From an uncultured Candidatus Saccharibacteria bacterium (GTDB taxonomy: Bacteria; Patescibacteriota; Minisyncoccia; Phycocordibacterales; DATDWN01): a stretch of 64,000 nt of DNA. Under the pieces are notes generated by a model, which saw nothing but the letters and a program-made list of their open reading frames with translations, ran no database searches and was not told the origin of the DNA. The position numbers and the translations under genes were made by a program. Shown here in pieces: positions 23,227-59,134 of this stretch. Where the stretch lies: positions 12,688-76,687 of the forward strand of contig CAYMJQ010000002.1 of NCBI GenBank assembly GCA_964391455.1. Direction: 5' to 3'. The first letter of the stretch is position 1; every line of letters starts with the position of its first letter.

Positions 23227-23255
23227 TTGACAAAATACATTTTTAGGTGTATAAT
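23227..23255 (+). promoter_or_regulatory. consensus sigma70 promoter TTGACA-17-TATAAT driving the GC-rich mini-gene
   Basis: The sequence ttgacaaaatacatttttaggtgtataat is followed by the SD aggaggtg (23263-23270). Confidence 0.55.
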
Positions 23256-23274
23256 TTACGTTAGGAGGTGCCAA

Positions 23275-23511
23275 ATGGCACAGGTGCAGCAGCTCGTTTT
23301 CGCCATCATGGTTATGTTTGTGGTGGCGACTGGGATTTCCGTCATGATTGGCGGGCTTCCCTTGGCTGGTCGACTCTGGAGGTCGGCCAGCAACCTGATC
23401 CGCCGACAGGTGGTCAGGTCTCTCGGATGGCTCTGGCGGAACTACCGCCGGGAAATCATTGGGTTCTGGGTGGGTGTTGCCACCACCCTGTTCGTTTTTG
23501 GACGCTTCTAG
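23275..23511 (+). CDS. GC-rich foreign-looking small membrane protein (78 aa, two TM helices, Arg-rich loop)
   Basis: An ATG lies 5 nt after the AGGAGGTG SD. The product is MAQVQQLVFAIMVMFVVATGISVMIGGLPLAGRLWRSASNLIRRQVVRSLGWLWRNYRREIIGFWVGVATTLFVFGRF. GC content is far above the flanks. A hairpin plus T-run overlaps the stop codon. The overlapping track ORF 23268..23543 is an alternative frame of the same GC-rich block. Confidence 0.5.
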   Translation: MAQVQQLVFAIMVMFVVATGISVMIGGLPLAGRLWRSASNLIRRQVVRSLGWLWRNYRREIIGFWVGVATTLFVFGRF

Positions 23512-23543
23512 AAATTTTAGGAGCGTTCTTTTTTATATCTTGA

Positions 23544-23582
23544 AAAATATTTTGCGATTATTTTAGTTTCGCAAAATATTTT
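23544..23582. promoter_or_regulatory. 14-bp perfect inverted repeat (AAAATATTTTGCGA…TCGCAAAATATTTT) upstream of xerC, candidate operator
   Basis: The repeat is visible in the sequence. Nearby TGCGACA-like repeats and an extended -10 (tgtgttataat) lie at about 23638. Confidence 0.35.
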
Positions 23583-23685
23583 CAGATTATGCGACAAGTA
23601 ATCTTGTTTGTATAACCTATATTGTGCGACATTGTGTTATAATTTCATCTAACAACTATAAAATGATAACTAGAAACTTTACCTC

Positions 23686-24615
23686 ATGGCTTCACTAAAA
23701 CAACTTAAACAACAATTTTTAGAATATGTTGAGATAGAAAGAGGTCGTTCTGTGAAAACAATAGAGAATTACGACCATTACCTATCGGTTTTTCTTGAAT
23801 TTTTAAAAAAAGATAAGCCTGAAGACATAACAGATGAAAATGTAAGGATGTTTCGTCTCTGGCTTAACCGTCGTCCTGTTGGTAAACATGGTCAAACAGT
23901 AACCAGAAAGACTCAGAACTATTATCTCATTGCCCTAAGGGCATTTTTGAAGTATCTAGCTAGGCAAGAGATAAAAACAATGCCAGCAGAAAGAATAGAG
24001 TTGGCGAAAACAACTGAAAGGTCTTTGGATTTAATAACCCAAGAAGAATTAAATAGGATTTTAGAGGCGCCCAATGGAAATGATGAAAAATCTTTAAGAG
24101 ATAAGGCTATACTAGAGCTTCTTTTTTCTACAGGTCTTCGTGTGTCGGAGCTATGTTCCCTACCTCGTGATATAAATCTTCGTTCGGATGAGCTTTCTGT
24201 GAAAGGTAAGGGTGGAAAAATAAGGGTAGTATTTTTATCAGAAGAAGCCAAAAGGTGTGTAAAAAATTATTTAGACAAAAGAAAAGATATGAACGACGGC
24301 CTTTTTGTGAGAATAAATCAAGATTTAGATAAAAAAGGTTCTAAAACAACAACAATAGATAAAAAAAATAATCTAGATAGAAGGTCTATAGAAAGAATAG
24401 TCAGGCATTACGCGATAAAAGCTGGTGTGTCTAAAAAAGTTACTCCTCATACATTAAGACATTTGTTTGCAACAGATTTACTTTCTAACGGAGCTGATTT
24501 GCGTTCAGTACAAGCACTTTTGGGTCACTCAAGTATTTCTACAACTCAAATATATACACATGTCACAGATAAACACCTGCGTGAAGTTCACAAAAAATTC
24601 CATAAAAAAAGTTAA
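23686..24615 (+). CDS. xerC: tyrosine site-specific recombinase XerC/XerD family
   Basis: The C-terminal catalytic motif HTLRHLFATDLL…LLGHSSISTTQIYTHV and an N-terminal SAM-like domain. Confidence 0.85.
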   Translation: MASLKQLKQQFLEYVEIERGRSVKTIENYDHYLSVFLEFLKKDKPEDITDENVRMFRLWLNRRPVGKHGQTVTRKTQNYYLIALRAFLKYLARQEIKTMPAERIELAKTTERSLDLITQEELNRILEAPNGNDEKSLRDKAILELLFSTGLRVSELCSLPRDINLRSDELSVKGKGGKIRVVFLSEEAKRCVKNYLDKRKDMNDGLFVRINQDLDKKGSKTTTIDKKNNLDRRSIERIVRHYAIKAGVSKKVTPHTLRHLFATDLLSNGADLRSVQALLGHSSISTTQIYTHVTDKHLREVHKKFHKKS

Positions 24616-24635
24616 TTTATGATAGTATTGTTTTT

Positions 24636-25430
24636 ATGAAAATAATCTCTTGGAATGTTAATGGAATACGCGCTGTACATAAAAAGGGTTTACTAGTTCC
24701 TTTTGTTGAAAAATACAAACCAGATATTCTGTGTTTACAAGAAACCAAAGCACAAAAAGATCAAAGTGAGGTAGATTTACCAGAATACAAGGAGTATTGG
24801 AATTCTGCAGAGAAAAAAGGTTATAGTGGTACAGCAATTTTTACAAAAGAAGAACCTTTGTCTGTTTTAATTAATTTTCCAGATAAAATAGCTAAAAAAT
24901 ATAAATTTTCTGATAAGTATGGTGATACCAACACAGAAGGTAGAATAATTTGTGCAGAATATAAAAAATTTTATTTAGTTACTGTTTATACCCCTAACGC
25001 AAAAGATGACTTAACTCGTATACCGATGAGACACAAGTCATGGGACCCAGCTTTTTTAGAATATATGAAGGAATTAGAAAAAGATAAGCCCGTTATGTTT
25101 TGTGGAGATTTAAATGTGGCTCATACAGAAGATGATTTAGCTAGACCGAAAGAAAACATAGGTAAAAAAGGTTTTACAAGTGAAGAAAGAGAAGGAATAC
25201 AAAAGTATATTGACGCTGGTTTTGTGGATACCCTAAGATTATTTAAAAAAGGAAATGGTTTTTATACATGGTGGAGTCATTTTGGTGGAGCCCGAGCTAG
25301 GAATGTGGGCTGGAGAATAGACTATATTTTTGTAAGTAAAAAGTTGAAGGAAAAAGTTAAGAAAGCAGATATCCATCCGGACATACTTGGCTCTGATCAT
25401 TGTCCAGTATCAATTGAAATTGAATTTTAG
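24636..25430 (+). CDS. xth: exodeoxyribonuclease III
   Basis: MKIISWNVNGIRA… and other EEP-family AP-endonuclease motifs in a 264-aa protein. Confidence 0.9.
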   Translation: MKIISWNVNGIRAVHKKGLLVPFVEKYKPDILCLQETKAQKDQSEVDLPEYKEYWNSAEKKGYSGTAIFTKEEPLSVLINFPDKIAKKYKFSDKYGDTNTEGRIICAEYKKFYLVTVYTPNAKDDLTRIPMRHKSWDPAFLEYMKELEKDKPVMFCGDLNVAHTEDDLARPKENIGKKGFTSEEREGIQKYIDAGFVDTLRLFKKGNGFYTWWSHFGGARARNVGWRIDYIFVSKKLKEKVKKADIHPDILGSDHCPVSIEIEF

Positions 25431-25554
25431 TTATCCACAATATTTTTATAAAATGTCCTTTACATATTTTTATAAAAGACATAAACTTATTTCAGAACGC
25501 AGATTAAATGTCCGATACAATAAACCCTGTATTGGATTGACGTTCTGTAATAGT

Positions 25555-25785
25555 TCTTTTTTTTGGGAATCGGCCGAATTCCTCTCTTTTAGAAGACCCC
25601 CTGGTCTTCCCTGGGAAAGAGTGTAAACGAGCTCCTCACTATCTACTATATTTTTTTGAGCATTCGTTACTACCCCCTGCCCTAGTAAGTACTGGGTGGC
25701 CCTTCTCCAAACTACGCACATTTGTGCGCCCAACAGTCCCTAGATTTGCCTTCGTGAGATGGCTCTCTAATTGGGGCTGTTTTTT
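25555..25785. ncRNA. candidate structured small RNA in a GC-elevated convergent intergenic region (identity unresolved)
   Basis: A ~230-bp block is clearly richer in G+C than its surroundings. It lies between the 3' ends of xth and cca and has several local hairpins. Only spurious ORFs cover it. Confidence 0.25.
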
Positions 25786-27250
25786 ATTGTACGTAATGTT
25801 TTTTTCTAATTTTCTTTATTTCTATTTCATCCACTTCTTCCTTTATCATTTTCCCCTTTTCTCCTAATTCCCTTAATTTATTTTCTGGTAATTCCAACAT
25901 TTCTAAAGCTCTTTTTTCCATATATTCATCTGTGTTTTTACTAGGGTCCTCTAATACTTCTTCAAGAAGTGCGTGTAAAACAAAACCAACTTTCGGTCCA
26001 GGAGGAATTTTGCCTATTTCTATAATTTTTTTACCATCAATATTAAGCATTCCTACAGAAATCGGGTCACGGAGAGCTTCTTCAATCATTGAATGATATT
26101 TTCTGAGACGATAGGGGTCTTCTTTGGGTCTACCAGCTCCTATACGATCGCATATGCGTAGATTCATTAAATCCCATATATTTTCTCGTCCAACATTTAC
26201 AATCATTCTACGGACCGCAGAGAGCGTAATTTGCTCTGTGTCAGAGAAAAACATATGCCAGCGTATCATGGAAACAACTTTATCAATGATTTTTGTAGGA
26301 TATTTTAAATTTTCAAGAATTTTTTTAGTTTTTCTTGCTCCAAGAACTTCATGGCCAAAGAAAGTCCATTTTTTATTTTTCCCACCACCTCTTCTTGTTT
26401 CTGGTTTAGAAATATCATGAAAAAGTGCAGAAAGCCTTATTTCTAAAGGGTAATTTTTATCAGCTGAATGCTGTAGTGATCTAAGTAAGTGCTCCCAAAC
26501 ATCATAAGCATGTACTCCCCCTTGTTCCACCCCTACGGTTTCTAGTAGTTCAGGTGAAATATACTCTAGTAAGTTAAGTTTTTTAAGCATCAAAAGTCCC
26601 TTCATTGGGTTATCTGACATTACTATTCTAGTGAATTCATCTCTTATTCTTTCCTTTGATATATTTTTTAACAAAGATGAGCTTTCTAACATAGCTTTTT
26701 CAGTTTCTGGATGAATTTCAAAACTTAACTCAACAGAAAGTCTAATTCCCCTAATTATTCTAAGTCCATCTTCATTAAATCTTGATACAGGATCTCCTAC
26801 AGTTCTTATTAATTTGTCTTTTAAATCTTTTTCTCCACCATAAAGGTCAATAAATTCATTTTTAGATGTCGAATAGGCTAACGCATTCACAGTGAAATCT
26901 CTCCTTTTTAGGTCATCTTCTATTTTTTGGCTAAAAATAACGTTATTAGGATGCCTATTATCCAAATACTCCCCTTCTAATCTATACGGAGTTACCTCTA
27001 CCACTTTCAATGTTTCTTTTTCTACATTTTCATTTACAACTCCTACTGTACCAAAGGTATTTTCATAAAAAGTATTTGGGAACGAGGCTATTATCTGTTC
27101 TGGATTAGCATTTGTTGTTATATCCCAATCCTTCGGTTCCCTATCAAGCATAAGATCTCTCACGCAACCACCAACAAGAAAAGCTTCAAAGCCTTCTTTT
27201 TCTAGTTTTTTCGTTATGTTAGTTATTTCTTTTGGAATATTTAGTTTCAT
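25784..27250 (-). CDS. cca: CCA-adding tRNA nucleotidyltransferase / poly(A) polymerase family with HD domain
   Basis: An N-terminal GGCVRDLMLDREPKDWDITT nucleotidyltransferase head and a C-terminal HD domain. Confidence 0.8.
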   Translation of the reverse strand: MKLNIPKEITNITKKLEKEGFEAFLVGGCVRDLMLDREPKDWDITTNANPEQIIASFPNTFYENTFGTVGVVNENVEKETLKVVEVTPYRLEGEYLDNRHPNNVIFSQKIEDDLKRRDFTVNALAYSTSKNEFIDLYGGEKDLKDKLIRTVGDPVSRFNEDGLRIIRGIRLSVELSFEIHPETEKAMLESSSLLKNISKERIRDEFTRIVMSDNPMKGLLMLKKLNLLEYISPELLETVGVEQGGVHAYDVWEHLLRSLQHSADKNYPLEIRLSALFHDISKPETRRGGGKNKKWTFFGHEVLGARKTKKILENLKYPTKIIDKVVSMIRWHMFFSDTEQITLSAVRRMIVNVGRENIWDLMNLRICDRIGAGRPKEDPYRLRKYHSMIEEALRDPISVGMLNIDGKKIIEIGKIPPGPKVGFVLHALLEEVLEDPSKNTDEYMEKRALEMLELPENKLRELGEKGKMIKEEVDEIEIKKIRKKHYVQ

Positions 27251-27263
27251 CTAAATAAAATTG

Positions 27264-27335
27264 TGCTCTCGGTAGGAATCGAACCCACATCCACGGTTCC
27301 GAAGACCGGTACTCTATCCATTGAGCTACGAGAGC
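27264..27335 (-). tRNA. tRNA-Arg (anticodon UCG)
   Basis: I folded a cloverleaf by hand on the minus strand, read as gctctcg-ta-gctc…ccggt-cttcgga-accgt…gtggg-ttcgatt-cctac-cgagagc-a. It is 72 nt with one C-U mismatch at the top of the anticodon stem. Confidence 0.75.
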
Positions 27336-27369
27336 TTATTAATAATAACATGAAAAAGACAAAATTTTG

Positions 27370-27440
27370 TGCGGTCAGGGGTAATCGAAACCCCGACTGC
27401 TCCTTGGCAAGGAGCTGTTATACCACTTAACCATGACCGC
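27370..27440 (-). tRNA. tRNA-Gly (anticodon GCC)
   Basis: On the minus strand: gcggtca…gctcc-ttgccaa-ggagc…ggggt-ttcgatt-acccc-tgaccgc-a. It is 71 nt. Confidence 0.85.
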
Positions 27441-27679
27441 ATTATTTGATATTTACTATCATATAACAATTATTATAAAAATAAAAGCTTTTAATTTATC
27501 AGACAAAATTTTGTTCAATTGTGGATAACTCTGGGGACATGTGTATTAAAGACAAGTCTTTGACTATTGTCAAATTTAAGGACCTTATAGTACATATTTT
27601 TATTATATGGCTTAAAATAAGTCTATTTTTCAATAGACATGGCTATTAAAGGTCTGTTCTTTACGTTTTTTATAAAAGT

Positions 27680-27748
27680 TTCACGTGAAATATATAAAAT
27701 AGTTACATATGTAACAAATATTTATTTAGAATTGGTTACATATGTAAC
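27680..27748. promoter_or_regulatory. operator-like cluster: TTTCACGTGAAA palindrome plus two copies of the perfect 14-bp palindrome GTTACATATGTAAC
   Basis: The exact palindromes sit at 27680-27691, 27702-27715 and 27735-27748. Each 14-mer is followed by (A/C)AATATTTA. All lie upstream of the 27788 gene. Confidence 0.45.
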
Positions 27749-27787
27749 CAATATTTACTTATTTTAATATAGGAGTATATTTTCTTT

Positions 27788-28228
27788 ATGTTTAATAAAA
27801 AATTTCACAAAGAACCTACAGATAAACAGAAAATTGGCCAGATGGGAGAAGATATTGCCTGTAATTATCTTGAAAATAAAGGTTATAAAATAGTCGAGAG
27901 AAATTATCTAAAAAAGTGGGGAGAGATTGATATAGTTTCCAAAAAAAGCAATATAATTCATTTTGTTGAGGTAAAAGCAGTTACTAGGAATTTTGACAGT
28001 GTTACACATGTAACAAATAACGGTAATTATAAACATAATGACTCTTATAATCCCGAAGACAATATGCACCCTTGGAAACTCAAGAGGTTAACCAGAACAA
28101 TACAGTCATATTTGCTGGATAGAAGTGTTTCAGATGAAACAGAGTGGCAGTTTGATCTAGTTACTGTGTATATAGATTTAGATAAAGGACTTAATAGGGT
28201 AGAGGTTCTTGAAGACATTGTCCTATAA
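27788..28228 (+). CDS. YraN/UPF0102-like endonuclease-fold protein
   Basis: …GEDIACNYLENKGYKIVERNYLKKWGEIDIVSKKSNIIHFVEVKA… matches the YraN family pattern. The protein is longer (146 aa) with a C-terminal extension. Confidence 0.55.
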   Translation: MFNKKFHKEPTDKQKIGQMGEDIACNYLENKGYKIVERNYLKKWGEIDIVSKKSNIIHFVEVKAVTRNFDSVTHVTNNGNYKHNDSYNPEDNMHPWKLKRLTRTIQSYLLDRSVSDETEWQFDLVTVYIDLDKGLNRVEVLEDIVL

Positions 28229-28255
28229 TTCGAACTATTTCTTTGTGGTTCGAAA

Positions 28256-28645: not shown

Positions 28646-28646
28646 A

Positions 28647-28718
28647 CGGAGTGTAGTGAAACGGCTATCATACCTGTTTTGGGAACAGGCGATCCGAGTT
28701 CGAATCTCGGCACTCCGA
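28647..28718 (+). tRNA. tRNA-Pro (anticodon UGG)
   Basis: cggagtg-ta-gtga…cctgt-tttggga-acagg-cgat-ccgag-ttcgaat-ctcgg-cactccg-a. It is 72 nt with a C1:G72 pair. It starts 2 nt after the HNH stop. Confidence 0.85.
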
Positions 28719-28783
28719 CAAGAGTTTTATGATAAACCGCCGACCTCACAAAGTGAGATTCGGCGGTTTGGTGGTAAGGTGTG

Positions 28784-28906
28784 CTAGGTGACTATCCCAG
28801 CATACCATTTTCCGGTTCGTCGCTTCCTGTTTGCAAATCGGTTTTTCCACTTGGCGTACTGAACGCCAGCGAAAAAAGCGATTACAAAAAGAACAATTTC
28901 TGTCAT
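28784..28906 (-). CDS. GC-rich 40-aa hydrophobic peptide with basic tail (type I toxin-like), SD-preceded
   Basis: My minus-strand translation is MTEIVLFVIAFFAGVQYAKWKNRFANRKRRTGKWYAGIVT. It is preceded by GGAGGG and 5 nt. It lies in a GC-rich structured block right after tRNA-Pro. Confidence 0.4.
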   Translation of the reverse strand: MTEIVLFVIAFFAGVQYAKWKNRFANRKRRTGKWYAGIVT

Positions 28907-28970
28907 TTTTCCCTCCATAAAAAATAGTACAACATATACTTTTTTTGTCAAAATATGTTATATTTCTAAA

Positions 28971-29267: not shown

Positions 29268-29269
29268 AA

Positions 29270-30470: not shown

Positions 30471-30541
30471 GCGGGATTAGTTTAGTGGTAGAATGACTGC
30501 CTTCCAAGCAGTATACACCAGTTCGATTCTGGTATCCCGCA
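30471..30541 (+). tRNA. tRNA-Gly (anticodon UCC)
   Basis: gcgggat-ta-gttt-agtggta-gaat-g-actgc-cttccaa-gcagt-atac-accag-ttcgatt-ctggt-atcccgc-a. It is 71 nt and very similar to bacterial tRNA-Gly(UCC). Confidence 0.85.
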
Positions 30542-30735
30542 CAAAATAAAATCCCCGAATGGGGATTTTATGTTGAGGATACCAGAATCGAACTAGATAG
30601 AGTTCGGGAAAGAAAGTCTTTCCCGTGGAGGAAGGCAACGAGCGGAGCGAGTGTTGGAAAACCGAGGGTTTCCAAGGAGTGAGATATCTGGTATCCCGCA
30701 CACGAGAAGCCCGAAAGGGCTTTTTATTGTGTGTG
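30542..30735. repeat. tRNA-Gly 3'-end-derived direct and inverted repeats framing a GC-rich structured element, with flanking terminator hairpins
   Basis: The 15-nt direct repeat ctggtatcccgcaca occurs at the tRNA 3' end and again at about 30684. An inverted near-copy of the T-arm and acceptor (gaggataccagaatcgaact) lies at about 30574. Hairpin plus T-run terminators sit at 30549-30572 and 30705-30730. Confidence 0.45.
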
Positions 30736-31273
30736 GAATAAGCAAAACATTGTTTTGCGTCCAGAATCGAAAGACGGAGCGGGTACCAGTTCAGCAGAAC
30801 TGGTCGTGAGTCGAGGTTGTTCTCTACAGTTTCATTTATTGTGTTATAATTTGGTAATTGTGAATACAATTACCTCCGGTCAAAAGTTTTTTTATAATTT
30901 AATTGCTAATGTAGTTTTTCTACTGCATTTATTTCTGGTTTTGGTGGTTTGTATTGGTTGGGCTTTTCCTTCTTTGTTTTATCTATTTTTATTTCTACTT
31001 TCAATAACAGCTCTTTCTGAAATTTTTCTAGGATATTGTATTTTAACTAAGTGGGAATTTAGTTTAAGAAAAAAAATTGATCCAAGTAGACAATTTGATA
31101 CATCATGCATATTTCATTATGGTAGAGCCATGTTCGGATTAGGACCAAGGGTTCCAACTAATAAAAAAGAAGCCGGATTTTTCAAAAAGTATTCATCACT
31201 TCTAGTGTTACTACTACCTTTATTAGGAGCTATTCTGGTTAAGTTTGGGCCAGGGACTTTACAAAATTTTTGA
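30731..31273 (+). CDS. small polytopic membrane protein resembling DUF2784 (C-x-LT-x-WE motif); N-terminus uncertain
   Basis: The C-terminal two-thirds (…LHLFLVLVVCIGWAF…SEIFLGYCILTKWEFSLRKK…) looks like a real membrane protein. The track start overlaps the tRNA-derived element, so the true start is probably an internal GTG or TTG (30806 or 30860). An extended -10 tgtgttataat lies at about 30841. Confidence 0.4.
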   Translation: MWNKQNIVLRPESKDGAGTSSAELVVSRGCSLQFHLLCYNLVIVNTITSGQKFFYNLIANVVFLLHLFLVLVVCIGWAFPSLFYLFLFLLSITALSEIFLGYCILTKWEFSLRKKIDPSRQFDTSCIFHYGRAMFGLGPRVPTNKKEAGFFKKYSSLLVLLLPLLGAILVKFGPGTLQNF

Positions 31274-31284
31274 TAGGAGTAATA

Positions 31285-31452
31285 TTTAACACGGAGGTTC
31301 ATCGGGGTCTAGCCACTGTGCTCAAGTCCACGCTAAGTGAAAACTGGTCCGGATTTTCCGGATAAAGGACCACAATAAATGTGGACTCGCGGTGCACTTG
31401 CACCCCAAAGAACACCGGCTGAGAGTTGCTTCGGCAGCTCTCAGCCTTTTAT
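31285..31452 (+). ncRNA. candidate structured RNA / elaborate 3'UTR ending in a UUCG-loop terminator
   Basis: A GC-elevated block with nested stems (agtccac…gtggact enclosing ggtccgg…ggacc). It ends in the ggctgagagttgc-ttcg-gcagctctcagcc hairpin plus T-run (31417-31452). A second, bidirectional terminator follows. Confidence 0.25.
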
Positions 31453-31457
31453 ATTAT

Positions 31458-31487
31458 CAAAAAACACCTTGTTACAAGGTGTTTTTT
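31458..31487. terminator. bidirectional intrinsic terminator (A-run, hairpin aacaccttg/caaggtgtt, T-run) ending hup
   Basis: The sequence aaaaaacaccttgttacaaggtgttttttg is visible. Confidence 0.55.
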
Positions 31488-31534
31488 GATTTCTTCTAGA
31501 AAAAATCAGACATCTGTGTCAGATTTAAGAACTT

Positions 31535-36359: not shown

Positions 36360-36422
36360 ATTTTGGCAATATTAAAAAATTGCCTATAAAGGCAATTTTT
36401 TAATTTGAACTGAAAATTTATT

Positions 36423-44878: not shown

Positions 44879-44879
44879 T

Positions 44880-49080: not shown

Positions 49081-49174
49081 GTTATTGATTTATTTATATT
49101 TTACTTTATAGTTGTGGAAGGGTTCTTTGACTACCACCTGCCTGTGGCAGACTGGTAATTGTTAGGAGACTGCC

Positions 49175-49780
49175 ATGAGCACCTCATTTCGTCAGGTAGT
49201 GAAGATTGCGAATACTCTGGAAGAGAAAGGGCTAACACCCGAACTCATCCAGTCTGAGCTTTTGGGTAGGGGAATTCTCGCAGATATCGCCGAGGCGGTG
49301 GTTCTTGGAACTGTGCCTAATCGCCGAGAGTTTCAGAAGTTTCTCGGAATTTTACCACCCCCTATTCCTCTCCTCGTCGACTACACGATGAGCCTCACCA
49401 AGATGATCTCAGCAGGAAAGTACGACCGTAAGAACTCAAACGTGAATAACAAGAACTTTCCCCGCACCAAGTCGGGGAAGTTCACGGTGGAGGTAGAGCT
49501 TCTACAAATATATCGGCAAACCTATTCGGAGAGCGTTCTCGTCGAGATGTTGAAACTCGGTTTCCGTCCGGCGACTCTGGAAGAACTCCTCTCATTCGGA
49601 GTCACAAACCCAGAAGTTCAGAGAGAGTTCCCTGTGGTTGCTCTCGGATCATCCTGTGTTCTGGATGGCGTTCGCCACGTTCCGTACCTAAGTGGGGACA
49701 ATTTGGAGCGCGACCTTGACCTGGACTGGTTCGCCAGCTGCTGGGGTCGCGGTTATCAGTTCCTCGTCGTTCGCAAGTGA
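49175..49780 (+). CDS. GC-rich foreign-looking hypothetical protein (201 aa)
   Basis: It is preceded by an AGGAG SD 6 nt before the ATG and a palindrome ctgccTGTggcag. Its composition is strongly GC-shifted. A UUCG-tetraloop hairpin (cctcgagtgg-ttcg-ccactcgagg) follows the stop. I recognise no domain. Confidence 0.5.
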   Translation: MSTSFRQVVKIANTLEEKGLTPELIQSELLGRGILADIAEAVVLGTVPNRREFQKFLGILPPPIPLLVDYTMSLTKMISAGKYDRKNSNVNNKNFPRTKSGKFTVEVELLQIYRQTYSESVLVEMLKLGFRPATLEELLSFGVTNPEVQREFPVVALGSSCVLDGVRHVPYLSGDNLERDLDLDWFASCWGRGYQFLVVRK

Positions 49781-49884
49781 TCTTTTGACCTTTGTTTCTG
49801 TGACTGTACTCTGTGCCTTGTCACTTAGACACTTGGTCCCTCCTCGAGTGGTTCGCCACTCGAGGAGTTATTGTATACAAAAAG

Positions 49885-50247
49885 TTATATCAAACTTTCT
49901 TTGAGTAGTTTTAGATTTGTTTCAAAATCTTTTGGGGTTCCAGAAACTTCTTTGTTTGGGAATACCCAGATGTGAGCGTGGGGAACTTCGTCACCAACTA
50001 TTTTAGAAAGTATCCAATCAGTGTTAAAAGCTTTTTGTTGGGCTAAAGCTATTTTTTTTGCCACTTCAAAATATTCTCCAGCATTTTCTACATCCCAAAC
50101 CCATCTTTTGTGCTCTTTGGGTATGACTTGGGTATGCCCAGGAGATTGGGGATTTATATCTAAAAAAGCTAGATATTTATCATCCTCATACACCCTATAA
50201 CAAGGTATCTCTCCCTTAACTATTTTGCAAAATATACAGTTGTTCAT
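49885..50247 (-). CDS. HIT-family (histidine triad) nucleotide hydrolase
   Basis: An N-terminal CxxC and the HIT motif HAHIWVFP; 120 aa. Confidence 0.8.
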   Translation of the reverse strand: MNNCIFCKIVKGEIPCYRVYEDDKYLAFLDINPQSPGHTQVIPKEHKRWVWDVENAGEYFEVAKKIALAQQKAFNTDWILSKIVGDEVPHAHIWVFPNKEVSGTPKDFETNLKLLKESLI

Positions 50248-52122: not shown

Positions 52123-52128
52123 GTGTTT

Positions 52129-52221: not shown

Positions 52222-52249
52222 GCAAAAATATATTTGTTATACTAATTAA

Positions 52250-53054: not shown

Positions 53055-54536
53055 ATGATTTTATCAGCCACATTTGGCTTCATCTTAGGTATTGCCAGTG
53101 CTTCATTTTTCTATTTTGATTTCTGGTCTATTTTAGCTTTGTTTTTAGGTGGTTTCATTTCTTTTTCTTTTTATTATTTCAGAAGCAATGTTTCAAGAGA
53201 AAAATTTTGGATATTTACTTTATTTTTTGTGTTTTTTATTTTAGGTGTTTTCAGAATAAATGTTTCAGATCTTTATTCTGAATCAAAATTAAAAGATTTT
53301 GATTCCAAGAAAATTATTGTTTCAGGTGTTATAGTTTCTGAACCAGACATCAGGGATAACAACACAAAATATACTATTGAGGTGCAAAAAATTTTTCCAT
53401 CAGGAGACAACAATTTAGATATTAGATTGGTTACAACTGAAAAAATATTAGTTACACTTCCTCTTTATCCAAAATTTAATTATGGAGACGAAATAAAAGT
53501 AAATGTTTCACTACAAAAACCAAAGTTAATAGAAAATGAAGATGGAAGGATTTTTAATTATGAAGGTTACTTGAGGGTGAGAGGTATTTGGTACACTTCA
53601 AATTATTCTACAGCAGAACCCCTATCTTCTGGTAATGGAAACATTATTAAACATTGGTTATTCAAAACCAAAAACATTTTCACAAATTCTATTGAAAATG
53701 TTTTACCACAACCTGAATCCAGTTTGCTTGGTGGATTGTTACTTGGCTCAAAACAAAGTTTGGGAAAAGATCTATTAAATGATTTTCAAAGAACAGGAAT
53801 TTCTCATATTGTTGTTTTGTCTGGTTACAACATTGCAATAGTTGCTGATAGCATAATTAATTTTTTTAAATTTTTACCAAAAAATATATCTTTCGGTTTT
53901 GGTACTGTGGGAATAATTTTATTTACAATTTTATCTGGTTCTGGGTCTTCCGGAGTGCGTGCATCTATTATGGTTTTGATTGCTTTGTTTGCAAAACATA
54001 GCAATAGAGATTATAAGTCAGATAGAATTTTAGGTTTCACAATTTTTGCAATGCTTTTGTATAACCCTCTTCTTTTGATATTTGATCCATCTTTCCAACT
54101 TTCTATTTTGGCAACAATAGGAATTATTTTTGTTTCTCCGGTGCTGGAAAAATATTTTAAAAATATTCCAGAGAAATTTGGTATGAGAGAAATATTTTCT
54201 ACCACTATAGCTACTCAAATAACTGTTCTACCCCTGCTTATATATAGTACAGGTATAGTTTCATTTGTTTCACTGCCTGTTAATGTTTTGATTTTGGGAA
54301 CAATACCAATAACTATGTTTTTCGGGTTTATTACCGGATTACTTGGTTTATTTTCTATGTATCTTGCTTTTGTACCAGCCTTTTTTACATACGTGCTTTT
54401 ATGGTATCAACTAAAAATAGTTGCCATAGGAAGTAGTGTTTCATTTGGTGTGATTAGTTTACCAGCTTTTTCTTCTGTGTTTTTATTTTTTATTTATATT
54501 TTGTTATTTTGGTTATTTTATAAAATTAAAAATTAA
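53055..54536 (+). CDS. comEC: ComEC/Rec2 N-terminal part (DUF4131 + competence channel domain)
   Basis: A polytopic protein with the ComEC core motifs SGYNIAIVADSI and ISHIVVLSG. It lacks the metallo-beta-lactamase domain. Confidence 0.75.
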   Translation: MILSATFGFILGIASASFFYFDFWSILALFLGGFISFSFYYFRSNVSREKFWIFTLFFVFFILGVFRINVSDLYSESKLKDFDSKKIIVSGVIVSEPDIRDNNTKYTIEVQKIFPSGDNNLDIRLVTTEKILVTLPLYPKFNYGDEIKVNVSLQKPKLIENEDGRIFNYEGYLRVRGIWYTSNYSTAEPLSSGNGNIIKHWLFKTKNIFTNSIENVLPQPESSLLGGLLLGSKQSLGKDLLNDFQRTGISHIVVLSGYNIAIVADSIINFFKFLPKNISFGFGTVGIILFTILSGSGSSGVRASIMVLIALFAKHSNRDYKSDRILGFTIFAMLLYNPLLLIFDPSFQLSILATIGIIFVSPVLEKYFKNIPEKFGMREIFSTTIATQITVLPLLIYSTGIVSFVSLPVNVLILGTIPITMFFGFITGLLGLFSMYLAFVPAFFTYVLLWYQLKIVAIGSSVSFGVISLPAFSSVFLFFIYILLFWLFYKIKN

Positions 54537-54541
54537 TTTTA

Positions 54542-55132
54542 TTACGCGTTATTAAATCTATCCTCAACTTTTTTCCAATTTAGATTTGTAAAAAAATCTT
54601 CTACATATTGTTTTTTACCACTTGGCTCATAGTCAGACACAAAAGAGTGTTCCCACATATCTAATGCAAGTATTGGAGTACAGTTTTGCAACTGTCCTAA
54701 ATGTTGTTCATCAACCCAAGAAGTTAGAAGTTTATTCTCTTTTTTGTCTAACCAAAGCATTGCCCAACCAACACCTCTTGTTAATGCAATAGTTTTAAAG
54801 TATTTAAGAAAGTTATCCAGGGTTCCATAATTTTCTTCCAATGCTTTTTTAAGCCCTTCATCTGAAAGTTCTTTCGGTCCATCTGACAGAGAATCAAAAT
54901 ATATTTCATGATTTCTCATACCATTATATTCAAAAGAAAATCTTCTATTTAATTCTCCAATCAGATAAATATTTTTTTCTACATCTTCCATAAAAAGTTC
55001 ATACAATTTCTGATTTACAAGGTTGGCATTTTTTACATACCCGGAATACAGTTTTAAATGTTCTTCTATGTTTTTTGTTGAAATGCCTTTAAGTTCCCCA
55101 ATATTAAATTTTTTTTCTTCAAATTGTGCCAT
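54542..55132 (-). CDS. sodA: Fe/Mn superoxide dismutase
   Basis: The motif DMWEHSFV…Y (compare DVWEHAYY) and metal-ligand His positions in the N-domain. Confidence 0.85.
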   Translation of the reverse strand: MAQFEEKKFNIGELKGISTKNIEEHLKLYSGYVKNANLVNQKLYELFMEDVEKNIYLIGELNRRFSFEYNGMRNHEIYFDSLSDGPKELSDEGLKKALEENYGTLDNFLKYFKTIALTRGVGWAMLWLDKKENKLLTSWVDEQHLGQLQNCTPILALDMWEHSFVSDYEPSGKKQYVEDFFTNLNWKKVEDRFNNA

Positions 55133-55154
55133 AGTTTATGTTTAAATTTATAAA

Positions 55155-56096
55155 TTGAAATTAGTATGTATACTATACCACATGGATGGAGTCGTGTTAC
55201 AAAGAAAAAATAAGCTCAAGAAGTACTTAATCATAGGTTTTTTTATTCTCAGTCTTTTTTTACTTTGGTCTATTTTTTTAGATAAAAAAGATAATTTATT
55301 AAAATTTTCTATGTTAGATGTTGGACAGGGAGATGCGTTATTTATAGAATCGCCAACAAAAGTTCAGGTGTTAGTAGATGGTGGCCCGGGAAATAATTTA
55401 TCAAGACAGATTTCAAAAGTTATACCTTGGCATGACCGACACATAGATATATTAGTTGTTACAAACCCAGATAGAGATCATTATGAAGGTTTTATAAAAC
55501 TTTTAGATAAGTATTCTGTAGGACTTTTAATAGAACCTGGTGTTATTAAAAATGATCCAGTTTACGAAGTCTTTAAAAATAAAATTAAAGATAAAAATAT
55601 TGAAACTGTTTTAGCTCGTAGAGGACAGGTCATAGATATAGGTGACGGGGCCTATTTACAAGTTCTATTTCCAGATAGAAATGTCTCACAAGTATCTCCT
55701 AATATGGGTTCAATAGTAATGAAACTTTTTTATAAAAATACAAATGTGATATTGCAAGGTGATTCCTTATCTAATATTGAAAATTATTTATTAGAAATAG
55801 ATGGAGATTATTTAAAAAGTGATATTTTAAAAGTAGGACATCATGGTTCAAAAACAAGTAGTATCGAGAATTATGTAGCAAAAGTTAATCCAGATTTTGC
55901 TCTGGTTTCCGCTGGAGAAAATAATCCGCACGGACATCCACATAAAGAAGTTATAGACATTTTTTCTAATTTAGGGATTCCTGTTTATAGTACTTGCAAT
56001 AATGGCAATATAAATTTTAAATCAGATGGAGAAAAATTTACTTTAAAAAACAAAAAAATAAAACAAGCTATTGTTGGTTGCAAAACAAATATTTGA
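55155..56096 (+). CDS. ComEC-type metallo-beta-lactamase domain protein (separate cistron, N-terminal TM helix)
   Basis: …MLDVGQGDALFIE…VDGGP…TNPDRDH… with a C-terminal HHGS motif. It resembles a ComEC C-terminal domain. Confidence 0.65.
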   Translation: MKLVCILYHMDGVVLQRKNKLKKYLIIGFFILSLFLLWSIFLDKKDNLLKFSMLDVGQGDALFIESPTKVQVLVDGGPGNNLSRQISKVIPWHDRHIDILVVTNPDRDHYEGFIKLLDKYSVGLLIEPGVIKNDPVYEVFKNKIKDKNIETVLARRGQVIDIGDGAYLQVLFPDRNVSQVSPNMGSIVMKLFYKNTNVILQGDSLSNIENYLLEIDGDYLKSDILKVGHHGSKTSSIENYVAKVNPDFALVSAGENNPHGHPHKEVIDIFSNLGIPVYSTCNNGNINFKSDGEKFTLKNKKIKQAIVGCKTNI

Positions 56097-56136
56097 CATT
56101 TTTATAAAAGATATTAACATTTTTTTTGGAGGTAAG

Positions 56137-56334
56137 ATGAAGCACACCCTTCTTTGGGTTCGTGGTGGGGCGGAGGAAGTGGAACTTCCTTTTTCCGCTT
56201 CTCCGAGTGACGCGATGCCTCTGGCGAGGCGTCATGTTGAGAACTTGTCGCAGTCGACGGTGCCTTTGTCGAACTTCCGGCTTCGGATGCCGGATGGTCG
56301 CGAGGTGCCGATCGACCCCAAGAAGAAGCACTAG
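56137..56334 (+). CDS. GC-rich foreign-looking small protein (65 aa)
   Basis: A GGAGG SD 4 nt upstream. The product is MKHTLLWVRGGAEEVELPFSASPSDAMPLARRHVENLSQSTVPLSNFRLRMPDGREVPIDPKKKH. A perfect terminator follows. Confidence 0.4.
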   Translation: MKHTLLWVRGGAEEVELPFSASPSDAMPLARRHVENLSQSTVPLSNFRLRMPDGREVPIDPKKKH

Positions 56335-56350
56335 TACCAACTAGTGTAAA

Positions 56351-56388
56351 CAGCCAAATCCTGAAAACCAGGATTTGGCTGTTTTTTC
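56351..56388 (+). terminator. perfect intrinsic terminator
   Basis: The sequence cagccaaatcctg-aaaac-caggatttggctg is followed by tttttt. Confidence 0.7.
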
Positions 56389-56422
56389 TTTTTTTGTGTT
56401 ATATTGTTTTCCGGAGGATTTT

Positions 56423-56626
56423 ATGAGGGAAAATTGTTACGAGCTTCGCTGGCGGGTTGGTCAGGAGAAGATAAAGACGGGGTTTATGAATTTTTTTGGG
56501 GAGAAAGAAAAAGTTCTTCCTGAGGCAAGGGAAGTCGCCCAGAGGATTCATGGAAGAAATCCACTCATGAAGGATTTCTCTCTTCGAGGACCATGGGGAG
56601 AGGAAACTCCGATTTCTGTAAGCTAG
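56423..56626 (+). CDS. GC-shifted small protein (67 aa), second cistron of the cassette
   Basis: A GGAGGA SD 6 nt upstream. The product is MRENCYELRWRVGQEKIKTGFMNFFGEKEKVLPEAREVAQRIHGRNPLMKDFSLRGPWGEETPISVS. Confidence 0.4.
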   Translation: MRENCYELRWRVGQEKIKTGFMNFFGEKEKVLPEAREVAQRIHGRNPLMKDFSLRGPWGEETPISVS

Positions 56627-56632
56627 CTTTAG

Positions 56633-56671
56633 AAAACGACCGGACCATTTGTGTGGTTCCGGTCGTTTTTT
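56633..56671 (+). terminator. perfect intrinsic terminator
   Basis: The sequence aaaacgaccggaacc…ggttccggtcg is followed by ttttttc. Confidence 0.7.
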
Positions 56672-56692
56672 CATAGGTGATGTGTATTTTTA

Positions 56693-56727
56693 ATTTGGAA
56701 ACCAGTAGTTCGCCAAATTTGAGAATT
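56693..56727. repeat. partial inverted copy (D) of the dispersed repeat left arm
   Basis: ttcgccaaatttg is the reverse complement of the caaatttggcgaa start of copy A, and it sits next to aatttggaaacc. Confidence 0.35.
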
Positions 56728-56970
56728 CTATATTAACCCTGCTTTTTTTAGGGTTGCATAGGCTCCGTTTTTCTGAATAGTCTTTATTGCTTCAGTAGAA
56801 ACAGTTAAAGTTATAGATTTTTTAAGTTCAGGTATGTAAATTCTCTTTTTTTGTAGGTTTGGGTAGCGTCTTTTAACACCAGTAGGATTAAACTGGGTTG
56901 CACGTGTTCTGTTTGAGTACCCACCTCCTAATTGAGATGACTTTCCTGTTATGTCACATACTTTTGCCAT
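56728..56970 (-). CDS. rpmB: 50S ribosomal protein L28
   Basis: MAKVCDITGKSSQLGGGYSNRTRATQFNPTGVKRRY… is a canonical L28 sequence. I chose the start at the MAKVCD methionine (56970), not the track's upstream ATG. Confidence 0.8.
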   Translation of the reverse strand: MAKVCDITGKSSQLGGGYSNRTRATQFNPTGVKRRYPNLQKKRIYIPELKKSITLTVSTEAIKTIQKNGAYATLKKAGLI

Positions 56971-57017
56971 AGTGTCGAATATGTTAGCATACATATATTA
57001 AAAAGCAAATTAAATAA

Positions 57018-57626
57018 ATGAATCTGGATTTTATATTTCAAATAGCAATACTTATATTTTCTGTTGTTGTTCATGAGTTTTCTCATGGCTATGCCGCTTA
57101 TAGACTAGGAGATAATACAGCTAAATATGCTGGCAGATTAAACCTAAATCCAATAAATCACTTAGAGCTTTTTGGTTCTTTTTTGTTACCAGCAATGTCT
57201 TATTTATTGGGGGGTTTTATTATTGGTTGGGCAAAACCAGTTCCTTTTAATCCTTATAATTTAAGGAATCAGAGATGGGGCGAGGCAATTGTTGCGTTTG
57301 CTGGTCCACTATCTAATATTCTAATAGCTTTATTTTTCGGAATTCTTATAAGATTAAGTATACTTTCTTCATTGGGTGAATCTTTTCTATATATAGGAAC
57401 AGTTATTGTATTTATAAATTTGATTTTAGCCGTGTTTAACCTTATGCCGATACCGCCTCTAGATGGTTCCAAGATACTTTTCTCTGTTTTGCCTTACAAT
57501 ATGGGCTATGTTAGAAATTGGATGGAACAAAACGGTATATTTATTCTTATTTTCTTCATATTTTTTATGTGGAGATTTATAATACCTTTGGTTGGTTGGG
57601 CTTTTGGTATGATAACTGGGCTTTAA
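57018..57626 (+). CDS. small membrane zinc metalloprotease (site-2 protease/M50-like)
   Basis: HEFSHGYAAY (the HExxH motif) lies inside a TM helix. The protein is 202 aa with 5-6 TM segments. Confidence 0.6.
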   Translation: MNLDFIFQIAILIFSVVVHEFSHGYAAYRLGDNTAKYAGRLNLNPINHLELFGSFLLPAMSYLLGGFIIGWAKPVPFNPYNLRNQRWGEAIVAFAGPLSNILIALFFGILIRLSILSSLGESFLYIGTVIVFINLILAVFNLMPIPPLDGSKILFSVLPYNMGYVRNWMEQNGIFILIFFIFFMWRFIIPLVGWAFGMITGL

Positions 57627-57691
57627 TATTTGCTAGTCATAAGTAGTTGCAATATTATCAAATATATATTAGAGTAACCCTTACGTATATT

Positions 57692-58108
57692 ATGTCGACA
57701 ATAAATCAGTTGGTTAAAAGAAAAAGAAAGAATGTTAAAACAAAGCCAAAAGCTGTGGCTCTTACTCGTGGTTTTAATACTCTTAAAAATAGACCTGTAT
57801 TTTATCCTTCTTCTTTTAAAAGAGGTGTTTGCACAAAAGTAACAACAAAGACTCCTAAAAAACCTAACTCTGCTATTAGAAAAATTGCAAGAGTAAGACT
57901 TTCAAATGGTATGGAGGTTACTGCTTATATTCCAGGTATGGGGCACGGCTTACAGGAACACTCAGTGGTACTACTGAGAGGTGGAAAGGTAAAGGATGTC
58001 GGTATTCGTTACACTATAGTTAGAGGAGTTCTTGATGCTACTGGTGTAGAAAAAAGAATGAAAGGAAGGTCTCGATATGGTGCTAAAAGACCAAAAGCAG
58101 GTAAATAA
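57692..58108 (+). CDS. rpsL: 30S ribosomal protein S12
   Basis: [13 protein letters not shown]…, with the conserved PNSA(I/L)RK motif. I chose the start at the MSTINQ methionine, not the track's upstream ATG. Confidence 0.9.
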
Positions 58109-58120
58109 ATTTAAATAAAA

Positions 58121-58588
58121 ATGAGAAGAAAAGTTACAAACAGAAATATAGTGGGCAAGGATTTGGAATTCAACTCTGAAAAAGTTGGAAAGTTTATTAA
58201 CTATGTAATGTGGAGAGGTCAAAAAGAAACTGCAAGAGGCATTGTTTATGGTGCTTTTGAAAAAATAAAAGAAAAAACAGGTTCTGATCCTATGGAAGTT
58301 TTTGATACAGCTTTGAAGAATTCAGGCCCTCTAACTGAAGTTAGATCAAGAAGAGTTGGTGGTGCAAACTATCAAATACCTAGAGAAGTAAGACCAGAAA
58401 GAAGATCTTTTCTTGCTATGAAGTGGATAATAGGGGCAGCGAGAGAAGGTAAGGGAGCTTCTATGACTGATAGATTAGCTGATGAAATAATACTAGCTTC
58501 AAAAAACGAAGGTAAGGCAGTTAAGAAAAGAGAAGATACTCACAAGATGGCAGAGGCGAATAAGGCCTTCGCTCACTTCGCCTGGTAG
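58121..58588 (+). CDS. rpsG: 30S ribosomal protein S7
   Basis: [11 protein letters not shown]…[24 protein letters not shown]-like sequence; 155 aa. Confidence 0.9.
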   Translation: [155 protein letters not shown]

Positions 58589-58760
58589 TTTTTACTGTCT
58601 TTTTGCCGTACTCCTTTGTCGCAAACTCCGCTCGTTCTCGCGGAGTATTTTTATACACCTTGGTCACGATGCTCGTTTGCTTCGCGGATTACCGCAAAAA
58701 TCCTAGTAAAAACAAATCTTTACTTTTTTATTTTTTTTGGTAGTTTTCTTTTAGGAGGTG

Positions 58761-59114
58761 ATGATGAAAACCGAAATTGCAAGATTGCTTGAAGAAAAAA
58801 GGGTAGAGCGAGGGGAAACCAAAGGGGAGTTTAGTAAGTTCCTGGGTTTTTCTGTCTCTATGTATGATCAAGTTTTGAATGGCACAAGAACTCTGCCCAA
58901 GAAATACTCAGTTCGTGTGTCCGAAGTCATCAATATCCCGGCTGATCGAGTTATGTTTCTTTCAAAACTCGGTAGAAGGGCTTTGTTGTCTGACCATGAA
59001 ATTACGGGTGATGAGCTAAGGTATCTTGCTGGCATCGCAGATGCTGCAGGGTCTCCTGTCCGACTTTCTTTGCTTCTTGAACATCTGGAACATTATCCCA
59101 AAAGAACCACATGA
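58761..59114 (+). CDS. GC-shifted XRE-like helix-turn-helix protein inserted between rpsG and fusA
   Basis: An AGGAGGTG SD. The start is MMKTEIARLLEEKRVERGETKGEFSKFLGFSVSMYDQVLNGTRTLP…, with a predicted HTH at residues ~20-45. A terminator lies upstream (58636-58665) and downstream (59101-59134). Confidence 0.5.
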   Translation: MMKTEIARLLEEKRVERGETKGEFSKFLGFSVSMYDQVLNGTRTLPKKYSVRVSEVINIPADRVMFLSKLGRRALLSDHEITGDELRYLAGIADAAGSPVRLSLLLEHLEHYPKRTT

Positions 59115-59134
59115 ATATTGTGTGGTTCTTTTCG
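59101..59134 (+). terminator. intrinsic terminator
   Basis: The sequence aagaaccaca-tgaatat-tgtggttctt is followed by ttcgttt. Confidence 0.6.

Follow-up and report, generated by a model that had tools for sequence, protein, structure and literature searches.

How does a genome whose core genes start without a Shine-Dalgarno (SD) sequence come to carry small, GC-rich genes that are each headed by a strong one? The question is raised by a 64-kb stretch of contig CAYMJQ010000002.1 (the window, by which we mean the whole of the DNA analysed), where five intergenic loci hold six such open reading frames (ORFs), called here cassettes c1, c2, c3, c4a, c4b and c5. Judged by its host proteins, which are 60-85% identical to those of the relatives L002 and L005 (a Candidatus Zambryskiibacteriota metagenome-assembled genome (MAG), the closest named relative) and are encoded in a conserved gene order, the window genome would be placed in the Parcubacteria group, near Candidatus Zambryskiibacteria. 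The labels L002-L168 stand for fetched loci of relatives, L087 coming from GCA_964453075.1 and L089-L168 being metagenome contigs. The answer we favour, with a probability of roughly 0.55, is that the six ORFs are moron-like, autonomous accessory cassettes residing in chromosomal hot spots, and that their SD serves structured, GC-rich starts in a lineage that otherwise does without it.

The compositional divide is wide. Against a window GC of 0.332 and some 57 long host ORFs whose GC at third codon positions (GC3) runs from 0.145 to 0.28, the cassette ORFs have GC3 values of 0.38-0.73 (the lowest, that of c5, being 0.37-0.38). On the plus strand lie c1 (23275-23511; 78 aa, GC 0.58, GC3 0.73), c3 (49175-49780; 201 aa, GC 0.517, GC3 0.59), c4a (56137-56334; 65 aa, GC3 0.68, adenine at third positions, A3, 0.03), c4b (56423-56626; 67 aa, GC3 0.45) and c5 (58761-59114; 116-117 aa, GC 0.43), the weakest outlier; c2 (28784-28906; 40 aa, GC3 0.45) is on the minus strand.

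The expression signals set the same ORFs apart. Each of the six has a GGAGG or AGGAG core 3-7 nt before its start codon, whereas a core of at least 5 nt is present in only two of the 57 host genes, an enrichment with a hypergeometric p of ~4e-7 by our own arithmetic. The sigma70 promoter TTGACA-17-TATAAT of c1 (23227-23255) agrees with the consensus at 12/12 positions, those of c2 (28951-28924, minus strand) and c4a (56093-56120) at 10/12 and that of c3 (49085-49112) at 9/12; the promoters of c4b and c5 depend on an extended -10 box. Taken together, promoter-like sites are no more frequent in this AT-rich DNA than in shuffles (31 vs 32; 32 vs 35), so that only the top-scoring ones are informative, and the best matches of the scanned regions include the cassette promoters. 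A hairpin of 10-16 perfect pairs (12-16 for all but c2) lies 3' of each ORF. Around their start codons (-30 to +30) the cassettes have folding energies of -7.3 to -12.1 kcal/mol, where host genes average -4.6, and are thereby more stable than 82-95% of host starts. The observation of composition and signals is thus real and far from chance: the outlying loci, the SD before every small ORF, the near-perfect promoter at 23227 and the perfect-stem terminators that the original prediction described were all recovered, and its statement that host genes have no SD at all is nearly right, two of the 57 being exceptions. The cassettes, as their predicted signals show, are autonomous units with an initiation signal that differs from that of the core genome.

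No tRNA or Rfam family lies under any cassette (ARAGORN; Rfam at the gathering threshold and at E <= 1, over the whole window and its sub-regions), the only four tRNAs found being located away from them. No cassette protein scored above threshold with PADLOC, NCBIfam or Pfam. Independent short contigs of run SRR15237806 show the same sequence at the c3 and c5 loci, which are therefore not assembly chimeras.

Initiation without an SD is a property of the lineage and not of the window alone. Across 46 related loci, an SD motif of at least 4 nt precedes 0-29% of ORFs of at least 150 aa, and 0% in most loci, in AT-rich and GC-rich clade members alike; because core ORFs so rarely carry the motif in all these loci, SD-independent initiation can be regarded as a lineage trait. 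In 25 of the 57 host genes of the window, a TATAAT-like box ends 0-14 nt 5' of the start codon, which suggests widespread leaderless mRNAs, and the core genes of the clade would start on leaderless or A/U-rich unstructured sites. Unlike the genes of leaderless type, fusA has a conserved leader of ~50 nt with a small hairpin, common to the window and L087. That the SD of the cassettes is used can be argued from its conservation: the core is kept in orthologous cassettes (c1 in L098; c5 in L087 and L088) and occurs in 45/72 homologues of c3 as against 18/283 neighbouring genes. The literature on SD use, leaderless translation and GC-rich targets of diversity-generating retroelements (DGRs) in Patescibacteria yielded nothing on a dichotomy between SD-led and SD-less genes, an anti-SD survey (PMC9297842) aside.

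The gaps in which the cassettes lie are hot spots with gain, loss and replacement. The same gap may be empty in one relative, hold a homologue in another and a different cassette of the same style in a third. Further cassettes were sought by a scan in 120-bp windows: no other SD-led GC island exists in the window, whose remaining GC-rich gaps are tRNAs or ORF-less segments, while AT-rich relatives have, over 662 kb, 73 GC-rich gaps, 30 of them with an SD-led ORF (10.7 expected from shuffles). It is from this excess and from the varying contents of the sites that we conclude on hot spots. Comparison of the orthologous sites, by which acquired and ancestral genes were to be told apart, gave a divided answer: the gaps of c1 and c3 are empty in relatives, and c5 and c4b are found in relatives in synteny. 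The view of the cassettes as inserted accessory units with an initiation style of their own is borne out by the empty gaps and by c3, whose homologue in L002 sits in another gap. When the GC-rich SD-led ORFs of ~170 loci were clustered for families that move between sites, the clusters beyond c3 and the c1 pair were antisense-ORF artefacts. One SD-led ORF of the relatives has an unusual address: at 18904-19359 of L087, a 74-aa ORF (GC3 0.77, SD AAGGAGGAG) lies between rpsJ and rplC, within the S10 ribosomal-protein operon.

The gap between the genes of ribosomal protein S15 and of an Xer-type tyrosine recombinase, which holds c1, illustrates this turnover. The spacer measures 542 bp in the window and is cassette-free, at 72-126 bp, in L090, L125, L092, L094, L100, L114, L123 and others; the ~440-bp insert containing the c1 promoter is absent from L090, L125, L092 and L094. 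L098 carries there a homologue of c1 together with a second SD-led ORF, and L089 an unrelated SD-led ORF on the opposite strand. All these inserts fall between the S15 -35 box and a conserved element, ATATTGTGCGACA, of the Xer promoter region. The recombinase gene itself is a conserved syntenic core gene that also adjoins empty gaps. Within the insert, the SD AGGAGGT (23263-23269) is retained as GGAGGG in the L098 orthologue; the predicted terminator (23500-23535), a 13-pair stem (23500-23528) followed by a T run, overlaps the stop codon, and a second, AT-rich hairpin of 14 bp follows at 23544-23582. Hydropathy predicts for c1 a membrane hairpin of two helices with a basic loop and a net charge of +8 (Kyte-Doolittle maximum over 15 residues 2.8; 2.3 for c2). 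The sole homologue, found by tblastn on the fetched relatives, is the 81-aa ORF at the same site in L098, 40% identical, with a GC3 of 0.65 and the same two-helix topology. No homologue was found in indexed protein databases, where the c1 ORF itself is not on record.

The surroundings of c1 have features of their own. The NYN gene at 22224-22769 keeps its place beside rpsO in conserved synteny throughout the clade. Two gaps of L002 (9300-9785 and 17632-18108), both empty in the window, are filled by NYN-domain genes with more AT than the host; they are a second, AT-rich class of gap-filling genes. Downstream of the gene of the CCA-adding enzyme, a GC-rich stretch (25520-25783) has no SD site and no Rfam match and is conserved in L089 and L091 with an 87-aa reading frame 62-67% identical; either a small gene or a non-coding RNA may lie there.

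Replacement is also seen between tRNA-Pro and the RNHCP gene, where three different SD-led ORFs occupy the gap in the window, L089 and L091: c2, a GC-rich 65-aa ORF resembling KGG-repeat stress proteins and a 32-aa ORF, respectively. The promoter of c2 reads TTGACA-16-TACTAT and its SD, GGAGG, is at 28912-28916 (plus-strand coordinates); the peptide has one predicted N-terminal hydrophobic helix, a basic tail and a net charge of +7. The hairpin between tRNA-Pro and c2 (28734-28769, 10-bp perfect arms), shared with the tRNA gene, is probably a bidirectional terminator, which the terminator scan missed because its T run is weak. In L091, a duplicated tRNA-Pro 3' end lies beside the mini-ORF. Elsewhere in the window, downstream of tRNA-Gly (30471-30542) and as far as 30771, parts of this tRNA recur three times: an inverted T-arm (30577-30593), a direct 16-nt copy of the 3' end (30687-30702, matching 30528-30543) and an inverted fragment (30760-30771). 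These copies, to which the duplicated tRNA-Pro end of L091 is similar, look like scars of integration and excision at a tRNA. Further on, a GC-rich segment (31280-31490) downstream of a 180-aa gene has no ORF or SD-led start and no Rfam family above threshold; two strong terminators (31417-31446 and 31456-31490) close it, and it may encode a small RNA.

Between an MBL-fold gene and that of ribosomal protein L28, c4a and c4b stand in tandem. They are 28% identical over 60 aa, the whole length, and are a tandem duplicate, the sole related pair among the cassettes. Each has its own predicted signals: the promoter TTGACA-16-TAACAT, the SD GGAGG (56128-56132) and a terminator with a perfect 16-pair stem (56348-56384) for c4a, and an extended -10 box, TGtTATATT (56397-56405), the SD GGAGG (56413-56417) and the terminator AAAACGACCGGA...TCCGGTCGTTTT (56633-56669) for c4b. 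The same gap holds genes of c4a and c4b type in L085, one of c4b type with a zinc-ribbon ORF in L086, and a c4-like 82-aa ORF with a zinc-ribbon ORF in L087. The c4a gene thus has an orthologue at the same site in L085, the c4b-type genes at the site are 45% and 35% identical to c4b, and a terminator stem AAAACGACCGGA...TCCGGTCGTT is common to the window, L085 and L086. Between c4 genes, tblastx finds matches where blastn does not. For c4b, AlphaFold2 gives a confident model with a beta-beta-alpha-beta-beta fold.

The rpsG/fusA gap contains c5 alone in the window, its homologue and two further small ORFs in L087, and in the distant L004 only an uninterrupted spacer of 111 bp. The rpsG gene has its own terminator (58625-58646) ahead of the cassette. 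The c5 promoter, TTTACT-16-(TGG)TAGTTT, and the SD AGGAGG (58753-58758) together span 58719-58758, and L087 and L088 keep both the -10 box TGGTAGTTT and this SD. A predicted terminator with 12-bp perfect arms and a 9-nt loop lies at 59100-59132. The sole homologue, at the same site in L087 and with the same box and SD, is 72% identical in protein and 66% in DNA. The product has a putative N-terminus of XRE helix-turn-helix (HTH) type and an uncharacterised C-terminal half; its HTH matches are weak but repeated (Pfam HTH_3 PF01381, E 1.1e-3 and 19.4 bits, below the cut-off of 23; phrog_8 'transcriptional regulator', E 9.8e-6; PADLOC HTH_VI, 3.2e-4; nothing in NCBIfam), and PHROGs matched nothing but this HTH.

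The cassette that links this set to a known system is c3, between pgk and a HIT gene. Its product combines a variable helical N-terminus with a C-type-lectin-fold domain (residues ~60-201): in the AlphaFold2 model the 140 C-terminal residues, the terminal one excepted, have block-mean pLDDT (predicted local distance difference test) values of 91-98, and the model matches C-type-lectin and formylglycine-generating-enzyme (FGE) folds, including the Treponema DGR protein TvpA. There are 32 indexed homologues and 123 species-level genomic matches, nearly all in Patescibacteria classes. At 23 homologous loci, a second copy of the gene's last 126-147 nt, 80-92% identical, lies 300-450 bp downstream, and 413 of the 441 mismatches between this variable region (VR) and its template repeat (TR) fall at adenines of the downstream copy, which is the signature of DGR adenine mutagenesis. 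This makes c3 a member of a family of DGR variable proteins that have a C-type-lectin fold and extend across Patescibacteria. As the family profile had no meaningful match to PDB or Pfam, the family is uncatalogued. The original prediction had counted three proteins without domains; c3 has this fold and homology, and the other two are the paralogues c4a and c4b, with the confident model described above.

A complete DGR is at hand in L002 (1617-4215), where a further GC-rich target (VR 2098-2225) is accompanied by a TR (2590-2717), Avd and reverse transcriptase (RT), with 15/17 mismatches at template adenines; the corresponding gap of the window is only 63 bp long (36360-36422). No TR of c3 was found in the 64-kb window (blastn, word size 7, query 49100-49890), nor any match to the L002 Avd and RT proteins at E <= 1e-5 (tblastn), and c3 is for this reason considered a remote or orphaned target. 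Remote targets, a DGR clade specific to the candidate phyla radiation (CPR), as well as CPR targets without recognisable domains, have been described (PMC8144416). The homologue of c3 in L002 lies between the genes of a type II secretion system (T2SS) ATPase and of T2SSF, a gap empty in the window, and the pgk/HIT gap is empty in L002; the two proteins are 50-52% identical, where host orthologues reach 60-85%. Depletion of adenine by DGR-like mutagenesis was considered as a source of the composition of whole cassettes and rejected, only c1 and c4a being A-poor at third positions and the scaffolds of the c3 family not (A 0.26 vs T 0.21).

The non-coding parts of c3 are also conserved. The promoter-like site TTGATT-16-TATAGT occupies the position where L002 has a perfect TTGACA-17-TATAAT before the same box of the 5' untranslated region (5'UTR). 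This 5'UTR (49114-49174) opens with the box GTGGAAGGGTTCTTTGACT (49114-49132), common to L002 (9925-9943), of which GTTCTTTGA is present in 10/73 5' regions of the family, and contains the SD AGGAG (49164-49168). The family shares as non-coding traits the 5'UTR start box GTGGnAAGGnTTCTTTGACT, a strong TTGACA / TGTGTATAAT promoter and an array of CTTGG-like motifs in the 3'UTR. In c3, the segment equivalent to the VR (49642-49777) ends in a conserved GC-rich TTCCTCGTCGTTCGCAAG, and the sequence TTCCTCGTCGTTCGCA is kept at the 3' end of the gene in the window and L002 despite 50% protein identity, with a perfect 12-bp hairpin 60 nt downstream, a candidate for an arrangement of the kind known from initiation of mutagenic homing (IMH). 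This hairpin (49840-49867; 8 G-C pairs, loop TTCG, then TTATTGT) would act as terminator and/or DGR target hairpin. The 3'UTR before it (49781-49839) holds the CTTGG-like motifs at ~8-nt spacing, 4 against 0.76 expected; in the family (3'UTRs of L005-L084), 70 nt between stop and terminator contain 2.9 motifs on average, where shuffles give 0.55, and the commonest spacing is 8 nt. The array, about five-fold above shuffles, occurs with or without a TR, and no published description of it was found. The c3 homologues of L012, L022, L026, L028, L030, L031 and L034 have a further 5'UTR motif, GGCAAGyCTGGGG - hairpin - TGAGGG, ~40-90 nt before the start, whose hairpin arms differ in sequence with complementarity kept; Rfam does not list it, the window's c3 lacks it, and it may be a cis-regulatory RNA.

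From these signals and models, a coherent picture of the cassettes can be proposed. Each is made up of a predicted promoter of sigma-70 type, a short 5'UTR in which a strong SD lies, one small ORF and a predicted intrinsic terminator; its own promoter and terminator would make expression independent of the landing site and insulate the neighbouring core operons. The SD would be needed because GC-rich starts have too much structure for the routes that the host uses, by unstructured or leaderless starts. As for entry into the gaps, the simplest guess is DNA uptake followed by homologous recombination in the conserved core genes on either side. To judge by sequence and models, c1 and c2 most likely encode small membrane peptides, c3 a ligand-binding protein that is hypervariable and c5 a regulator of transcription; c4a and c4b, predicted small soluble proteins, may be antitoxins or inhibitors.

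Several findings nevertheless weigh against accessory cassettes of this kind. The marks of mobile elements are lacking: neither terminal inverted repeats nor convincing target-site duplications were seen at the cassettes, nor a recombinase or transposase of their own, and the idea of selfish modules finds no support here. Around c5, 10-nt direct repeats are at chance level only (~0.5 expected by our estimate), and boundaries set against empty sites showed no duplication. Neither do the cassettes form one family, as had been supposed, since no relationship between their sequences exists except that of c4a and c4b. Outside Patescibacteria the searches gave no donor and, apart from a few MAG bins of doubtful label, no homologue either; a phage reservoir for c3 was rejected, since 2.9 million viral contigs yielded a single match, on one whose GC is 0.49 and which uses no SD. 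The GC excess is moreover persistent, c5 standing ~0.18 above the host GC3 both in the window and in L087, and c4b 0.18-0.25 above it in the two genomes measured (window, L085). In 21 complete DGR loci (L008-L084), the target scaffold has a GC of 0.52, the VR 0.64 and the TR 0.53, as against 0.38 for the Avd/RT block and 0.42 for the rest of the locus. Neither the GC excess of long-resident c5 and c4b nor the host-like Avd/RT is what simple import with later amelioration would predict. Lastly, an anti-SD motif is reported to be undetectable in about half of Parcubacteria (PMC9297842), and among 1.77 Mb of fetched relative loci there is no 16S rRNA 3' end.

The original prediction had called the cassettes recent and had itself held that ORFs conserved in syntenic positions would be ancestral host genes; such conservation is found for c5 (72%) and c4b (45%, 35%). 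At four-fold degenerate sites, host orthologues of the window and L087 are 0.33-0.51 identical, close to the 0.28-0.41 of random expectation and thus near saturation, and c5 is at 0.31 against 0.30. Since they hold the same sites in relatives with near-saturated four-fold sites, c5 and c4b are old residents; with only 12-39 sites in such small genes, these arguments are indicative and not conclusive. The best-surviving rival, a possible one that we regard with some doubt, takes this persistence as its starting point: the cassettes would be long-standing genes of the lineage forming a maintained second expression class, their GC and SD held by selection or GC-biased gene conversion under a separate translation regime, in the manner of the few SD genes read only by bS21-free ribosomes in Flavobacteria. 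It accounts for a GC3 offset that survives in orthologous cassettes despite near-saturated synonymous sites, for the confinement of all homologues to Patescibacteria and for the conservation of the SD across orthologues. The DGR loci speak for it too, as the adjacent Avd/RT block matches the host and the anomaly is therefore specific to the target gene with its TR. In 72 genomes, the GC of the c3 family rises with that of the host (gene GC = 0.56 x flank GC + 0.31, r = 0.58) and yet stays above it, 74 of 80 genes being GC-richer than their flanks, and Bacteroidia provide a precedent (PMC7797042, PMC9976891). What stands against this rival, apart from the small samples of four-fold sites, is real turnover: presence, absence and replacement at the same gaps in close relatives and the relocation of c3. 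Tentatively, and with still less confidence, one may go further and regard the GC-rich SD-led state, DGR targets included, as an actively maintained second gene class of SD-independent Parcubacteria, kept far above the genomic GC equilibrium and translated by SD pairing on ribosomes that ignore the SD on core genes, or under other conditions or ribosome states.

Recent horizontal acquisition from GC-richer, SD-using bacteria or phages, with donor composition and signals retained, is the original explanation in its strict form and now seems unlikely. The cassettes are indeed compositional outliers with foreign-looking expression signals, and the c1 site is empty in the closest relatives. The four-fold sites of c3 in the window and L002, identical at 0.42 against 0.25 random (host gene 0.42 against 0.34) despite 52% protein identity, are compatible with exchange between lineages later than the host split. 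Against such a donor speak the synteny of c5 and c4b in diverged relatives, the lack of homologues beyond Patescibacteria (the few doubtful bins aside), the near-absence of c3 from viral contigs and the fact that, in complete DGR loci, only the target gene and not the adjoining Avd/RT is GC-rich. GC-rich members of the clade were considered as SD-using donors and rejected because their core genes are SD-less too. That the GC islands are structured non-coding RNAs or assembly artefacts and their ORFs chance products, as the long spurious ORFs of GC-rich DNA (a 91-aa ORF overlaps c1 in another frame), the missing database call of c1 and the window's other GC-rich gaps without an SD-led ORF, which may be RNAs, could suggest, is highly improbable in view of protein conservation exceeding that of DNA (c5, c4), the membrane topology common to c1 and its L098 homologue, the confident models of c3 and c4b, the lack of Rfam matches and the identical loci on independent contigs.

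Whichever explanation prevails, one genome is found to hold two initiation styles with comparative support, SD-less core genes and SD-led accessory mini-genes. The compositional divide survives long residence and is not shared by functionally linked neighbours such as the Avd/RT genes beside DGR targets. Patescibacteria make up a large share of bacterial diversity, and their rules of gene expression are almost unstudied. If a maintained second class is indeed what the cassettes represent, ultra-small bacteria would possess a built-in two-channel expression system. Questions now made testable are whether these ribosomes read the SD, how a GC-rich class is kept up in an AT-rich genome and how small genes are exchanged among tiny genomes without obvious mobile machinery. 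In addition, a family of more than 120 species-level homologues without a Pfam model has been assigned a fold and a role as DGR variable proteins, and its 8-nt periodic 3'UTR motif array appears not to have been reported before.

Among known systems, transposons, miniature inverted-repeat transposable elements and insertion sequences can be set aside, as terminal inverted repeats, target-site duplication and transposase are all lacking. Integron cassettes are likewise small, with one ORF each and varied content, and accumulate at a defined place in the chromosome, and c1 adjoins a tyrosine recombinase gene. However, an integron cassette is a promoterless ORF with attC beside intI/attI; those described here have their own promoters and T-tailed terminators and no attC-like common element, four of the five sites are without a recombinase, and the Xer gene by c1 also adjoins empty gaps, so that this candidate was rejected. 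With type I toxin-antitoxin systems, c1 and c2 have in common the size and hydrophobicity of the toxins, being small hydrophobic membrane peptides by hydropathy, and their stand-alone layout with a strong promoter; they differ in having no homology to known toxin families, and no antisense RNA gene or overlapping promoter was identified, no dedicated antisense search having been made.

The DGR variable proteins (Mtd, TvpA and those of the CPR-restricted DGR clade 2, PMC8144416) are matched by c3 in homology and in the predicted C-terminal C-type-lectin/FGE-like fold carrying the variable region, with the difference that c3 stands solitary between pgk and the HIT gene, with no TR, Avd or RT within 64 kb. 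Bacteroidia translate blindly to the SD with few SD-bearing exceptions; in Flavobacteria the exception is chiefly rpsU, and sequestration of the anti-SD by bS21/bS18/bS6 has been demonstrated (PMC7797042, PMC9976891). Here as well nearly all genes are SD-less and a strong SD is kept on a small, specific set; the exceptions are, in contrast, GC-rich accessory mini-genes, and part of Parcubacteria is reported to be without an anti-SD (PMC9297842).

The closest likeness is to phage morons (reviewed in PMC3594210), which are inserted between genes of a phage as autonomous units of promoter, ORF and terminator. A single ORF with its predicted promoter and factor-independent terminator was found in all six cases; these small units lie between functionally unrelated genes, deviate in composition from their surroundings, vary in content among otherwise syntenic relatives and encode accessory products such as membrane peptides and regulators. 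The flanks, on the other hand, are not prophage but chromosomal housekeeping genes in clade-conserved synteny (rpsO, xerC-like, tRNA-Pro, RNHCP, pgk, HIT, MBL-fold/ComEC-like, L28, rpsG and fusA), and as they are located in chromosomal core regions, the cassettes lack the defining position of a moron inside a phage genome. Beyond what is described for morons, they also diverge from their host in the mode of translation initiation, and several of them have been stably inherited across diverged relatives.

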